Part shown: piece after piece, positions 13,116 through 53,611 of the stretch
Numbering within the stretch: the first letter of the stretch is position 1
Layout of the letters: the number at the start of each line of letters is the position of its first letter
Source: Rickettsiella endosymbiont of Miltochrista miniata
Lineage (GTDB): Bacteria > Pseudomonadota > Gammaproteobacteria > Diplorickettsiales > Diplorickettsiaceae
Length of the DNA: 64,000 nt
NCBI RefSeq assembly: GCF_964031245.1
Contig: NZ_OZ035017.1
Span: 215,402 to 279,401 of the forward strand
Reading direction: 5' to 3'
The notes under the pieces: model-generated
Databases searched by the model: none
Told to the model about the DNA's origin: nothing
Seen by the model: only the letters and a program-made list of their open reading frames with translations
Made by a program: the position numbers and the translations under genes

Positions 13116-13209
13116 TTAATTTAGACTACATAATTTTTGTTCTCTAAATGTTATATTTTTTGACAAACAGAGCAATTTTTAATTTTATCGGCGCATCTAA
13201 ATGTTAATA

Positions 13210-13333
13210 TATACTCACAGCAATGGGATTTTTGGCAAGGCGCGGCGAAAATGAAGCAACCGGAATGTATTAACATACATGAGGATTGCGAGTTGAGCCG
13301 CAACACAGACAAAAATGCAAGTGCGAAGAGTAT
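13210..13333. repeat. Repeat family A copy 2 (contains in-frame ATG at 13251)
   Basis: About 90% identical to 8170-8293 with the same termini. Lies between waaC stop and the conserved PriA N-terminus. Confidence 0.7.
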
Positions 13334-15437: not shown

Positions 15438-16952
15438 ATGACTATACCCAAAGAATTTCAAGCTGTGGTTAGGCGCACGAGGACGAACGAGCGCAATGTA
15501 TACGGAATACATGAGCACGTGAGTACCGATGTGCAACAACACCACAGCTTGAAAGGCGAAGCGTATATTAGTGTGTTTGATTTGTTCTCAATTGGTATAG
15601 GCCCATCGAGCTCGCATACCGTAGGCCCTATGAAAGCAGCCTGCGCTTTTGTGGAAAATCTGGCGCTTGATTTTGAATTATTTAATGAAATTAGCCGTTT
15701 ACAGGTTGAGCTGTTTGGTTCGCTAGCGCTAACTGGCCGCGGTCATGGCACGGATGTTGCAATTTTAAATGGCCTTGAAGGACAACTTCCTGAAACAGTC
15801 ATTCCCGATGAGGTTGTTCCGCGCGCCAAGTCAATTATTGAAAGTGGTAAAATTCAGCTGGCAGGGAAAAAATTTATCTCATTTTCTGAGAAAACAGACC
15901 TATTATTTCTACAAAAAGCATTGCTACCATTGCATACCAATGGTATGCGTTTTAGTGCCTTTAATACCCAAGGTGTTCTATTAAGTAGTCAAATTTATTA
16001 CTCTATCGGTGGTGGTTTTATTGTCACTGAACAAGAGTTTGGCCAGCAATATAAAGATGCTGTTCCAGTATCTTATCCCTTCTCTACAGCCAGTGAGTTG
16101 TTTAATGCCTGTAAAAAAAATAACTTAACGATTTCGGAGCTAATGTTGGCTAATGAACAACAATTAGCACCCGATAGAGATGTACGCACTGATTTATTGA
16201 AAATAGCCGATACCATGCAAACCTGCGTGGATAGCGGTTGTCATGCTCAGGGAATATTACCCGGCGAGCTTAATGTCAAACGTCGGGCACCGGAACTTTT
16301 CAGAAAAATGAATGATAAAACCACTTCGAAATTAGCGGCGTTTCCAGGGGCATTATTGTGGCCAACCATTTACGCGATGGCAGTTAATGAGGAAAATGCT
16401 GCTGGAGGTCGTGTGGTGACGGCGCCAACTAATGGGGCGGCAGGTATTATTCCGGCGGTATTAACTTATTATCGCCGTTTTTATGAAGATGTCAGTGAAC
16501 AATCGATCACTAATTTTTTATTAACTGCAGGTGCTATCGCTTTACTTTATAAAATGAATGCATCGATATCCGGTGCAGAAGTGGGTTGTCAGGGTGAAGT
16601 CGGTGTGGCTTGCTCTATGGCCGCAGGAGCATTGACGGCAGTTTTAGGCGGCACGTTAGAACAAATAGAAAATGCCGCGGAAATGGCGATGGAACATCAT
16701 TTGGGATTAACTTGCGATCCAGTAGCGGGCTTAGTTCAAATTCCCTGTATCGAACGCAATGGTGTCGGTGCGGAAAAGGCGATTAAATTGGCTTATTTAG
16801 CGTTAATGGAGGATGGGAAAAATAAAAAAGTATCCTTAGATAAAGTCATCGAAACCATGTTTGCCACTGGAAAAGATATGATGGCTATTTACAAAGAAAC
16901 CTCTTTAGGTGGTTTGGCAAAGACACTCGCTGTTAATATCACGGAATGTTAG
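15438..16952 (+). CDS. sdaA: L-serine dehydratase (single-chain, Fe-S). The conserved body starts at ...[22 protein letters not shown], so the ORF's first ~45 codons may be an extension or the true start is an in-frame GTG/TTG.
   Basis: SdaA N-terminal signature and the C-terminal alpha-domain GxCQGEVG motif. Confidence 0.88.
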
Positions 16953-16979
16953 CTATTCTTTTTCTATTTAAAAAAGCCT

Positions 16980-17080
16980 GTCATGGCGAGGCCGAAACGT
17001 CAGTGAGGCTGTGGCCATCCAGAAAAAATTAAGTTTTTCATTGGATTGCCGCGCGCTACGCGCTCGCAATGACGAAAAAT
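16980..17080. repeat. Repeat family B copy 1 (~101 nt; terminal inverted repeats GTCATGGCGAG...CTCGCAATGAC; internal GC hairpin)
   Basis: About 85% identical to 53257-53359. Located in the 3' intergenic region after sdaA. Confidence 0.65.
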
Positions 17081-17166
17081 AATTAAAAATTATTCTTTCG
17101 ATTTAATTATTGTTTAATAAAAAGCAGATAGCATAAAGATTGTCTTAGTTTAAGAGAACAATCATT

Positions 17167-18210
17167 ATGCCGAAGAAAAAAAATAAAAACCAAAATCAAA
17201 ATCCTTTTGAAAGCTTGGCCAAGACTATTTTAGCTAATACACAGAAAGCTTTTTACTTCGGGGCTAGTAATAAAGGTTCTACTCCGCATAGTAGTATTCA
17301 GGCTAGGTTTATTCTTGAAAAAATTGATCCTTTAATCGAGAAGGATAACTTTTTTGAAAGTAAATTGAAAAGAATCCCTTTTCGGTCTCGGTCAAAAATA
17401 AACGATATACGTCAAGAATATATTGAAGAAAAAAATATTTTGTTGGGTCTCGGATTCTTAAGCTTTTTTTATGATTATTCTACATTAAAGAAACAATTTG
17501 AAAATGAAAAGAAAGTAGATTGGGAAGATAATTGGCTTGACGATTTAAAGGATTTAAAGTTGATCTGGGCTAACTCTTACTTAGAGCAATATCGTAATGA
17601 GCATAATAAAAATCTCTTTTCAATTGAGGATGCTCAGACATACGATAATTTACGGCTCTTTGGAGTCCCAGATATAGGTAATGAGCGGAAAATTTATTAT
17701 AAACGTACTTTTTTTGATTTAAAAGCAGCTACCTTGCATGGCACAGGGGCTTGTGAGCTGATGGCTGAATTTGCTCTGTTTGAAGCAATACGTATGAGTG
17801 AAACCTTAGCCTGTCCTATCCATTATATTAGATTTCTAAGTAAAGAATATGAAGAGATAAATGCTATTGCGTTAGGAAATTGGCCTAATGAAGATTGTTT
17901 GGTTGTTTGTCCCTGGCTTGATAAAGGTGAAAACTTTATTTGGAAAAAAGATTTACAAACAACAAGATTTTCAAATTATCCAGAGAATGATATTAAAATC
18001 ATATTTAAAATTTTTCCTGGTACTGAAATGAATGAATGGAGGAAAGCATTAGCAACGTTTGATTTTCTTGCTGACACCGAGGAAAAACGAACCATAAAAA
18101 ACAGGGTTGAGAAATTAAGTGAGAAATATCAAAAGGCTTTTAAAGATCTCTTTATAAAAGAAAATGACGCTGAAATTAATTCTATGCCGATTAGAAGATT
18201 AGGTAGATAG
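17167..18210 (+). CDS. Hypothetical protein with Lys/Asn-rich N-terminus (orphan; effector-like)
   Basis: 347 aa, AT-rich codon usage, no recognisable domain. Confidence 0.5.
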   Translation: MPKKKNKNQNQNPFESLAKTILANTQKAFYFGASNKGSTPHSSIQARFILEKIDPLIEKDNFFESKLKRIPFRSRSKINDIRQEYIEEKNILLGLGFLSFFYDYSTLKKQFENEKKVDWEDNWLDDLKDLKLIWANSYLEQYRNEHNKNLFSIEDAQTYDNLRLFGVPDIGNERKIYYKRTFFDLKAATLHGTGACELMAEFALFEAIRMSETLACPIHYIRFLSKEYEEINAIALGNWPNEDCLVVCPWLDKGENFIWKKDLQTTRFSNYPENDIKIIFKIFPGTEMNEWRKALATFDFLADTEEKRTIKNRVEKLSEKYQKAFKDLFIKENDAEINSMPIRRLGR

Positions 18211-18249
18211 TATCATAAAATATTTCCTTTTTTACTATGATTTTTTGGG

Positions 18250-19080
18250 CTATTTCCTTCTTAAGGATCGCGCTTTATAAAGAGCACGCAAGGTTAAAAT
18301 GGGACCGGAAAGGGCATAGCAGAAAAAGATCAAAAATAATATTTTGGGTGGATCCAATGAAATGCCTACAAAAGCTAACACAACCAATAAAATAGCGACA
18401 AAAGGTACACGTCCTTTAAGGTCAATTTCTTTAAAGGAGTAATAACGGACATTACTGACCATCAAGATAGCAATGATGATCGCTAATACAGCGGTCATCA
18501 TGCTAACACCATTACCCAAGATTTCTGAGTCAACACATAGCCACACCATACTGGCTAACACACCCGCTGCGGCAGGAATAGGTAATCCTTGAAAATACCG
18601 TTTATCGGCTACCGATACCTGTGTATTGAAACGTGCTAAACGTAATGCCCCAGCCGCTGCAAATATAAATGCGGCTAACCAACCTAATTTACCTAGGCCT
18701 TCTAAAGACCAACTATAAATAACCAGCGCGGGTGCGACGCCAAAAGAAACCATATCTGATAAACTATCTAATTCAGCACCAAAAGCGCTTTGTGTATTGG
18801 TTAGGCGTGCAACACGACCGTCAAAAAAATCCATAATCATGGCAACAAAAATAGCAACGGCCGCATAATTAAAATAACCTTCCATGGCCGTGACAATGGC
18901 ATAAAAACCTGCGAATAAACCGGCGATGGTAAATAAATTGGGTAGTAAATAAATTCCACGCCGACGGTAAGCTAATCTTTCGCCCTCTTCATGATCACCA
19001 TGGTTACTCGCTTTATCCTCAGAAGTAGCCAATTTTTCTTCAATGGGCTGGAAAAGTTTTGCGTCATTTAAATTGTTCAT
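18250..19080 (-). CDS. pssA: CDP-diacylglycerol--serine O-phosphatidyltransferase
   Basis: CDP-alcohol phosphatidyltransferase motif (DGRVAR...G...D...D) and multiple TM segments. Confidence 0.85.
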
Positions 19081-52436: not shown

Positions 52437-53253
52437 ATGCTACCACTACCCGCACGTAAGCGCTTCGGTCAACATTTCCTGCACGAAGGTTTTGTTATTG
52501 ACAAAATCATATCAGCGATCGCACCTAAAAAAAACCGATCATATGCTTGAGATCGGTCCGGGTTTGGGTGCGCTAACCGAACGACTGTTGCCACATCTTA
52601 AAAGTTTAACCGTAATAGAACTAGATAAAGACCTCATTCCCTTACTAGAAGAAAAATGTGCAGCGCTTGGAGAATTAATTGTTTATCAAGGTGACGTATT
52701 AAAAGTTGATTTTCATACCTTGAGCAAGACTGAGCAAGTTTGGCGTCTAGTGGGAAATCTTCCTTACAATATTTCGACCCCTTTATTGTTCCATTGTCTT
52801 GAACAAGCCAGCATTATTCAAGATATGCACTTTATGCTGCAGAAGGAAGTAGTGGATAGGATAAACGCACACCCGGGACAAGCTAGTTATGGTCGTTTAA
52901 GCGTGATGATTCAGTATTATTGTCAGGTAGAAAAACTATTTAATGTGAAATCAGGCGCTTTCCAACCACCCCCAAAGGTAGATTCGGCGGTGATTCGGCT
53001 TATTCCCCATAAAGTATTACCTTATAAAGCCAATGAGCCCTTGCTATTTGCTGAAATAGTAAAAAATGCATTTAATCATCGACGTAAAATGCTACGTAAT
53101 AATTTAGCTAACTGGTTACAAGAACAAGAATTTGCAGAGTTAAAAATCAATCCGACATTACGACCAGAACAACTGGATGTTAGTGATTATGTAAAATTAG
53201 CAAATTTTGTTGCTAAAAGAAATGAGTTCTATAAGGAGGAAAATGAAAAATAG
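52437..53253 (+). pseudogene. rsmA: 16S rRNA (adenine1518/1519-N6)-dimethyltransferase RsmA/KsgA, interrupted by a +1 frameshift in an A8 tract (52527-52534); possibly a sequencing artefact or rescued by slippage
   Basis: Frame 1 (52437-52550) gives [32 protein letters not shown]. Frame 2 continues [18 protein letters not shown]...NLPYNISTP. Removing one A restores ...[19 protein letters not shown]. Confidence 0.8.
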
Positions 53254-53256
53254 TCC

Positions 53257-53359
53257 GTCATGGCGAGGCCGAAACTTTAGTGAGGCCGTGGCCATCCAGA
53301 AAAAATTAAGCGTTTCACTGGATTGCCACGCACCTAGGGTGCTCGCAATGACGAAAAAT
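53257..53359. repeat. Repeat family B copy 2
   Basis: About 85% identical to 16980-17080. Located between the convergent rsmA and csbD genes. The internal hairpin has compensatory substitutions relative to copy 1. Confidence 0.65.
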
Positions 53360-53401
53360 GCTTTTGATTACAGAACTAGCTGTTTTTTCAGCATCAAGTT
53401 C

Positions 53402-53611
53402 TTAATGATGGTCTTTGTGTTTATTAAAAAATTCATGCAGATCTTTTTGCGCTTGTTCTTTGCTAATACCATATCGTTCTTGAATTTTTCCAACTAACTT
53501 TTCTTTATCGCCATGCAATTGTTCCCAATCATCATCGGTTAACTTCCCCCATTGCTCGCGAAGTTTACCTTTAATTTGGTGCCATTTTCCTTTTAGCTCT
53601 TCTGGATTCAT
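53402..53611 (-). CDS. CsbD-family general stress protein
   Basis: 69 aa with KGKWHQIKGKLREQWGKLTDDD...KIQERYG pattern. Confidence 0.7.
   Translation of the reverse strand: MNPEELKGKWHQIKGKLREQWGKLTDDDWEQLHGDKEKLVGKIQERYGISKEQAQKDLHEFFNKHKDHH

Follow-up and report, generated by a model that had tools for sequence, protein, structure and literature searches.

The CGTC-tagged REPs described by Di Nocera, De Gregorio and Rocco (2013, BMC Genomics 14:522; PMC3733652) are recognised by a CGTC/TGTC (or CCTC) tag, a stem that starts with A and then T, and a CCA tail; they form head-to-head dimers, often heterodimers, lie mostly in intergenic regions downstream of genes and have no associated transposase gene (PMC3733652). 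They are abundant in the Alphaproteobacteria and occur also in several other phyla and in obligate intracellular bacteria, known occurrences including RPE-4/-6 of Rickettsia, Wolbachia, Coxiella (CGTC-1) and dRS3 of Neisseria (PMC3733652). Families 1-4 have uninterrupted stems of 8-9 bp and loops of 4-5 nt, e.g. GTCATTCCCGCGAAAGCGGGAATCC, and the peptides encoded by the published families (VIPAKAGI, VIPWLDHGI, VIAGLDPAIH) correspond to stems other than the one reported here; as Di Nocera et al. pointed out, bulged variants may have escaped their search (PMC3733652). Three further systems are close enough to warrant comparison. REPINs, as summarised in PMC6006769, consist of two inverted REP hairpins with a short spacer, which make up a foldback of roughly 100 nt. 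RPE-7 is about 99 nt long, numbers about 223 copies in R. conorii and has a predicted shared secondary structure (PMC2267715), and its ATGAC-containing palindromic ends are common to RPE-4/-6 (PMC3767692). Coxiella burnetii, finally, harbors QMITE1 and QMITE2, which measure 150-400 bp, have direct repeats of 2-11 nt and amount to about 50 copies per genome (PMC5896051).

The 64-kb stretch of DNA analysed here (the window), which comes from the Rickettsiella endosymbiont of Miltochrista miniata, contains two copies of an element of this general kind, at 16979-17074 and 53256-53353 from tag base to tag base, within which the spans delimited by the terminal inverted repeats are 16980-17073 (94 nt) and 53257-53352 (96 nt). 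The two are 89% identical; their conserved cores of 19 and 23 nt occur in the window only at these places, with 0.00 occurrences expected from shuffles, and a covariance model of the window subfamily, run over the window with filters off, scored copy 1 at 82.1 bits (E=2.7e-20) and copy 2 at 81.4 bits (E=4.4e-20) and detected no third copy in the window, the next best match reaching 11 bits (E=1). The original prediction had put two copies at these sites, where they are indeed found, with ends that it had drawn a few bases too far; the near-perfect terminal inverted repeats that it described are likewise present, the termini GTCATGGCGAG and CTCGCAATGAC being complementary at 10 of 11 positions. 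The gene context that it gave also holds: copy 1 follows sdaA (L-serine ammonia-lyase; 15438..16952, plus strand), whose stop codon is 27 nt upstream, and copy 2 lies between rsmA (16S rRNA dimethyltransferase; 52492..53253, plus strand), whose stop codon is 3 nt upstream, and a convergent csbD-like gene (53402..53611, minus strand) with syntenic homologs that carry Pfam CsbD. The NCBI L-serine ammonia-lyase from this Rickettsiella endosymbiont of Miltochrista miniata matches SdaA at 100% identity; RsmA, which may in fact start upstream of 52492, has its best matches, at 87-92% identity, among proteins of Rickettsiella and Aquirickettsiella. The interval 16952-18250, from sdaA to a CDP-alcohol phosphatidyltransferase gene, varies in content among Rickettsiella genomes: downstream of sdaA the window has a 347-aa lineage-specific ORF, L248 an intimin-like gene, L249 nothing and L250 a 1666-aa pentapeptide-repeat gene. 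The window also holds a second repeat family ("family A" in the original prediction), of about 128 nt, with copies at 8166-8293 and 13206-13333 that are 93% identical and have the termini TATACTC...GAGTAT; it is present in relatives (L121:16337-16461, L124:6476-6604, L126:6604-6732, L212:6239-6376, L136:12057-12182) and is probably another MITE-like element.

Both copies consist of two hairpin units that are inverted relative to each other and joined head to head as a doublet, and every unit has a tag, a stem and a tail of its own, so that the earlier description of a single unit with terminal inverted repeats was right about the repeats and wrong about the single unit. On the plus strand the G-unit follows the plan (C/T)GTC-ATGGC-GA-[GGCC...GGCY]-GTG-GCCAT-CCAG, and on the minus strand the T-unit follows the plan CGTC-ATTGC-GA-[5-bp stem, 3-nt loop]-G(YG)-GCAAT-CCA. 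In copy 1 (16979..17074 as a complete doublet, no strand assigned), the G-unit (16979..17022, plus strand) comprises the tag TGTC (16979-16982), a basal stem in which ATGGC (16983-16987) pairs with GCCAT (17014-17018), the dinucleotide GA (16988-16989), an apical stem in which GGCC (16990-16993) pairs with GGCT (17007-17010) with one G-T wobble around a 13-nt loop, the linker GTG (17011-17013) and the tail CCAG (17019-17022); the central spacer AAAAAATTAAGTTTTTCA (17023..17040), which can form a small A5/T5 hairpin, separates it from the T-unit (17041..17074, minus strand), CGTC-ATTGC-GA-GCGCG-TAG-CGCGC-G-GCAAT-CCAA. In copy 2 (53256..53353, likewise without strand), the G-unit (53256..53299, plus strand) has the tag CGTC (53256-53259), the basal stem ATGGC (53260-53264) with GCCAT (53291-53295), the apical stem GGCC (53267-53270) with GGCC (53284-53287), the linker GTG and the tail CCAG (53296-53299), followed by the central spacer AAAAAATTAAGCGTTTCA (53300..53317) and the T-unit (53318..53353, minus strand), CGTC-ATTGC-GA-GCACC-CTA-GGTGC-GTG-GCAAT-CCAG. 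The four tags are thus TGTC, CGTC, CGTC and CGTC, all stems start with AT, the tails are CCA tails (CCAG/CCAA), and the loops measure 3 nt in the T-unit and 13 nt in the G-unit. Folded singly as DNA, the units of both copies give two-tier hairpins whose tag and tail stay single-stranded, as is seen for the T-unit of copy 1.

With this anatomy the window element carries the signature of the CGTC REPs, namely the tag, the stem starting with AT, the CCA tail and the head-to-head dimer, and it shares with them an intergenic, downstream placement and the absence of a flanking transposase gene. It differs from families 1-4 in that its stem has two tiers, a basal one of 5 bp and an apical one of 4-5 bp, separated by a GA/G(YG) internal loop, and neither the GTCATKGCGAG family nor its G/T heterodimers appear among the peptides and sequences given in PMC3733652. 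The likeness to REPINs extends to a short tag 5' of the foot of each hairpin, the lack of a target duplication, the intergenic location and the existence of bulged "long hairpin" variants; the REPIN tag, however, is GT[AG]G rather than CGTC/TGTC, and no RAYT flanked by units of the window type was found in the window or in 2.98 Mb of family loci. Among named elements RPE-7 is the likeliest counterpart, on a comparison by description only, although RPEs, unlike the two intergenic copies of the window, are often inserted into genes in frame. The QMITEs of Coxiella, another member of the Coxiellaceae, resemble the window element in that they are palindromic, small and non-autonomous and occupy 3' regions of genes, yet QMITE2 carries a GTAG REP, whereas the window element is about 95 nt long and has a CGTC tag and no target duplication. 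We consider it probable that the two copies are non-autonomous, REPIN-like doublets of two REP-type units belonging to the CGTC-tagged superfamily, and that they are selfish, mobilised in trans and prone to decay.

The pattern of base pairing bears on which structure has been preserved. Taken as a whole, the element is predicted to form a long foldback with three branches, for RNA and DNA alike (predicted RNA folds of -40.7 and -45.6 kcal/mol, z=-3.8 and -4.4, for copies 1 and 2), and the predicted fold of the opposite strand is similar, as a palindrome would give. In the apical stem of 20 T-units, chosen only by their anchors and length, substitutions affect both sides in three of the five pairs (16 cells), covariation scores 0.195 as against 0.058+/-0.016 in shuffles (none of 500 as high), and the pairing is lost when the register is slid; the apical cells that do not pair come from a GGAGC/GCGAC variant, in which G-A mismatches stand in tandem. 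An alignment-free model in which the stem starts right after GA was tried and discarded, as it fits part of the superfamily only, the alphaproteobacterial GGAGC/GCGAC type deviating from it. At the third pair of the basal stem the combinations within a unit are T-A (138), G-C (55), G-A (48) and T-C (7), a covariation with an odds ratio of 22.6 (Fisher p=7e-19); like the other covariation statistics, these figures come from mutually related copies that are not phylogenetically independent and were retrieved with patterns that fixed some positions. In 20 Legionellales-type doublets the positions of this pair match within the unit in 20/20 and are mismatched across units in 20/20, and the fourth position, which the search left unfixed, is A in 51/51 metagenome doublets and pairs within the T-unit. 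Since pairing is kept within units and a mismatch is kept between them, the fold that is preserved is that of each unit, as with REPs, thereby indicating that the conserved structure is the unit's own hairpin rather than the long foldback. The standing mismatch in the long foldback may even protect the element from palindrome-directed cleavage, an idea that was raised by Di Nocera et al. (PMC3733652).

The same data put the difference between the two window copies in another light. Their inner stems, GCGCG-cta-CGCGC in copy 1 and GCACC-tag-GGTGC in copy 2, differ in two pairs that are altered on both sides, with no pair broken, a difference that the original prediction had taken as covariation consistent with selection on secondary structure. 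Stems of the CGCG/CGCG type and of the CACC/GGTG type both recur in other genomes, the CACC/GGTG stem together with the 2-nt length change of copy 2 occurs also in L112, L119, L130 and L202, and the decayed ortholog of copy 2 in L122, described below, has an apical stem and loop of the copy 1 type; in view of this recurrence and of the ortholog's stem, selection acting on each copy in situ is not needed. The compensated pairs and the family-level covariation stand. Judging from the sequences, the compensatory difference most likely represents two pre-existing subfamily variants of the apical stem, and the stem of copy 2 looks like a replacement by, or descent from, another family variant, not like the outcome of stepwise local compensation.

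The family extends far beyond this genome. A search for GTCATGGCGAG followed after 60-90 nt by CTCGCAATGAC in a database holding one genome per species returned at least 120 matches, and the record titles among the matches listed span more than 12 phyla: these matches include Alpha-, Beta- and Gammaproteobacteria, Chloroflexota, Bacteroidota, Verrucomicrobiota, Actinomycetota and Cyanobacteria as well as, by record title, Nitrospirota, Acidobacteriota, Fibrobacter, Caldithrix and Ruminococcus, and Rickettsiella and Aquirickettsiella are among them. A heterodimer-specific pattern had at least 120 matches in metagenomes, and a generic family pattern at least 120 in IMG/VR viral contigs (L251-L370). 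The shared plan consists of a tag, a basal stem, GA, an apical hairpin, a G-rich linker, the other strand of the basal stem, a tail, a variable spacer and the mirror image of all this. Of 264 family units, 141 have C and 105 have T directly before GTC, and the tail seen most often is CCA (112/264); across phyla, conservation is highest in the unpaired tag and tail. In 140 doublets the flanking position -1 is a pyrimidine in 89% and the position +1 a purine in 96%, only two positions per side being constrained (YY...RR) and the rest of the flanks random. Both window copies, like every copy of the Legionellales type, are doublets whose units are inverted so that the tags lie outside, and the Legionellales-type doublet is always a heterodimer in which a G-unit (ATGGC/GCCAT) and a T-unit (ATTGC/GCAAT) turn their tails to each other; single units are found also alone or in other arrangements. 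The element is thus multi-copy far beyond the window and shows structural covariation at the level of the family, and the REP-like structural element or MITE among the suggestions of the original prediction proved the correct direction.

Several observations accompany this survey. A BLAST search of the element against plasmids gave no match, a full-text literature search for the terminal sequence returned unrelated primers only, and a text search combining the genus with palindromic repeats yielded no description of such elements in Rickettsiella. Many of the IMG/VR matches listed are located between structural genes of clusters that resemble an alphaproteobacterial GTA or a prophage, and such clusters are possible vehicles for horizontal spread. 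At L082, L120, L012, L070 and L067, from other phyla, extra solo termini flank full elements on both sides in the layout GTCATGGCGAG, 7-16 nt, full element, 10-13 nt, CTCGCMATGAC, which suggests nested insertion or a duplication of the ends. In human-gut metagenomes one heterodimer locus turns up in identical form in L132, L135, L139-L141, L146 and some 40 further loci; a small GIY-YIG gene lies about 0.8 kb from it, and it appears to be a single locus of one prevalent gut bacterium.

The placement of the copies raises the question of whether they act as RNA. Among 131 distinct heterodimers about 74% abut the 3' end of a gene and 11% lie solely between divergent genes, and the two window copies begin 3-27 nt past stop codons. 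Together with the strong RNA folds, the covarying stems and the stabilisation of mRNAs by REPs in E. coli that PMC6006769 cites as background, this placement could be explained by a cis-acting 3' UTR module, i.e. an mRNA 3'-end stabiliser or factor-independent terminator whose RNA structure is under selection. Legionellales-type copies have, moreover, mostly an A-run followed by AGYCY or YCACC/AGTCC directly 5' of the G-unit (16965-16979 and 53240-53256 in the window), which could be a part of the element or a target preference; read on the opposite strand, the A-run becomes a T-run 4-8 nt past the hairpin, a strand that for copy 1 has no upstream gene. However, a terminator scan compared with shuffles detected no terminator-like site on either strand of either copy, and on the coding strand of sdaA and rsmA the hairpin leads into GAAAAAT; orientation relative to the upstream gene is unbiased (G-unit toward it in 60 cases, T-unit in 65); the strongest conservation falls on the unpaired tag and tail, which a function of the hairpin alone would not call for; an ortholog in a relative has accumulated uncompensated changes, and sister lineages have no element in the same spacer; and Rfam 15 gave no gathering-threshold match in the window or on family members in 18 loci, matches to the element itself at E<=10 being noise only. 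We therefore regard selection for such an RNA module as unlikely. The element may still serve incidentally to end or stabilise mRNAs, even though this would leave the conserved single-stranded tag and tail unexplained.

It is highly improbable, on much of the same evidence, that the copies constitute a family of independent small-RNA genes. The fold is stable and conserved, and MITE families of Coxiella do give rise to sRNAs (PMC5896051), but neither locus has a promoter-like site above shuffles in a useful position or a terminator, the element is palindromic on both strands and randomly oriented, and, as for the RNA module, the orthologous copy decays and no Rfam family matches. The small RNA and the terminator among the suggestions of the original prediction thus find no support in the T-tail, Rfam, orientation (60 versus 65) and ortholog data, and the element is probably low-copy mobile selfish DNA and not a new RNA gene.

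The comparison of orthologous sites illustrates how such DNA comes and goes. The rsmA-csbD-fkpA-mnmG neighbourhood is syntenic in relatives, and its rsmA-csbD spacer, which in the window holds an intact copy, holds in L122 (the Rickettsiella endosymbiont of Aleochara curtula, with about 89% nucleotide identity) a decayed orthologous copy that scores 39 bits as against 80-97 for intact copies and has uncompensated changes in all stems and substitutions in termini, basal stems and tails. In L121 the spacer contains, at another position, a copy of a different (sister) subfamily, apparently an independent insertion, and in L124/L125 and L126/L127 it has no element and a short hairpin only. A counterpart of copy 1 downstream of sdaA is absent in three relatives, in which the region is rearranged and so provides no clean empty site. 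Copy density is low, with 2 copies in the 64 kb of the window and, for relatives, 0-1 in some 20 kb. As read from these sequences, the series of filled, decayed, other-subfamily and empty spacers suggests mobility followed by neutral decay, a pattern of presence and absence that could partly reflect deletion.

A rival origin is a classical MITE, a deletion derivative of a DDE-type insertion sequence with 11-bp terminal inverted repeats and a target-site duplication, and the 10/11 complementary termini, the length of about 95 nt, the multi-copy state, the presence/absence polymorphism and the AAAAAT-like runs on both sides of the window subfamily copies would all agree with it. This origin is nonetheless very unlikely: in 140 doublets the direct repeats of the flanks are no longer than in controls with shuffled flank partners, so that there is no sign of a target-site duplication; the A-rich flanks are confined to the AT-rich Legionellales copies and their offsets are asymmetric; each half is an independent tagged hairpin that occurs also alone or otherwise arranged; and no insertion sequence with the same termini was seen near the 250-plus loci, in 2.98 Mb.

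The search for a mobilising enzyme of any other type was negative within the loci covered. Clustering of the ORFs within 1-1.5 kb of the elements, in genome and viral loci, revealed no gene family that recurs beside them, the neighbours being housekeeping genes (thiolase, ABC ATPase, SDR) or phage/GTA structural genes. The window has no Y1 homolog, and 2.98 Mb of family loci contain a single Y1 match, which is IS200-like and belongs to L057. There (L057:4115-5974, Snuella sedimenti) modules of some 180 nt with one doublet each form a tandem array, 12 units in all, which is interrupted by a Y1_Tnp gene (4848-5291; E=5.9e-37) and a GIY-YIG ORF (5338-5637). The possibility that this locus is a REPtron was considered and rejected, given that the Y1 protein matches the IS200/IS605 TnpA structures 2EC2, 2XM3 and 2A6M, that the gene has end hairpins of its own, that it interrupts the array and that it is the sole match in 2.98 Mb; its presence is probably fortuitous. 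A GIY-YIG gene is found at four independent family loci, which by a rough, uncomputed estimate is no more than background. Nothing in these loci qualified as a cognate transposase, which leaves standing the published view that CGTC REPs have none dedicated to them.

For the doublets as trans-mobilised REP-type elements we infer the following course of events, by analogy with REP/RAYT and IS200/IS605. The doublet would spread as one unit by way of single-stranded DNA hairpins, a sequence-specific enzyme supplied in trans would read the tag together with the hairpin, and insertion would leave no target duplication. Insertions would be tolerated mainly just downstream of genes, where the strong fold may incidentally stabilise or end transcripts, and copies that can no longer be mobilised would decay neutrally. 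A bolder proposal, which we put forward tentatively and hold to be rather doubtful, is that the GTCATKGCGAG two-tier doublets add to the CGTC REPs a fifth family, so far overlooked, whose heterodimers are propagated by a sequence-specific enzyme of single-stranded DNA other than a RAYT or a DDE transposase. Were this so, they would possibly rank among the most widely distributed bacterial repeats, with more than 12 labelled phyla and (pro)phage- or GTA-like regions to their record, and the enzyme would recognise the GA/GYG internal loop along with the CGTC tag.

These results bear both on annotation and on the biology of a common class of repeats. The element generates false ORFs that may pass as "hypothetical proteins", an example being the spurious 96-aa ORF that runs through copy 2 at 53207-53497 (...SPSWRGRNFSEAVAIQKKLSVSLDCHAPRVLAMTKN...). 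CGTC REPs are common, and for want of a known dedicated transposase the way in which they move has been a puzzle since 2013; the doubly compensated basal pair of the heterodimer indicates that the hairpin of each unit is preserved and not the long foldback, the GA/GYG internal loop offers a concrete candidate recognition motif, and the rsmA-csbD spacer provides filled, decayed, independently filled and empty states in series at one site. In the genomes of insect symbionts, finally, such elements may serve as strain markers.
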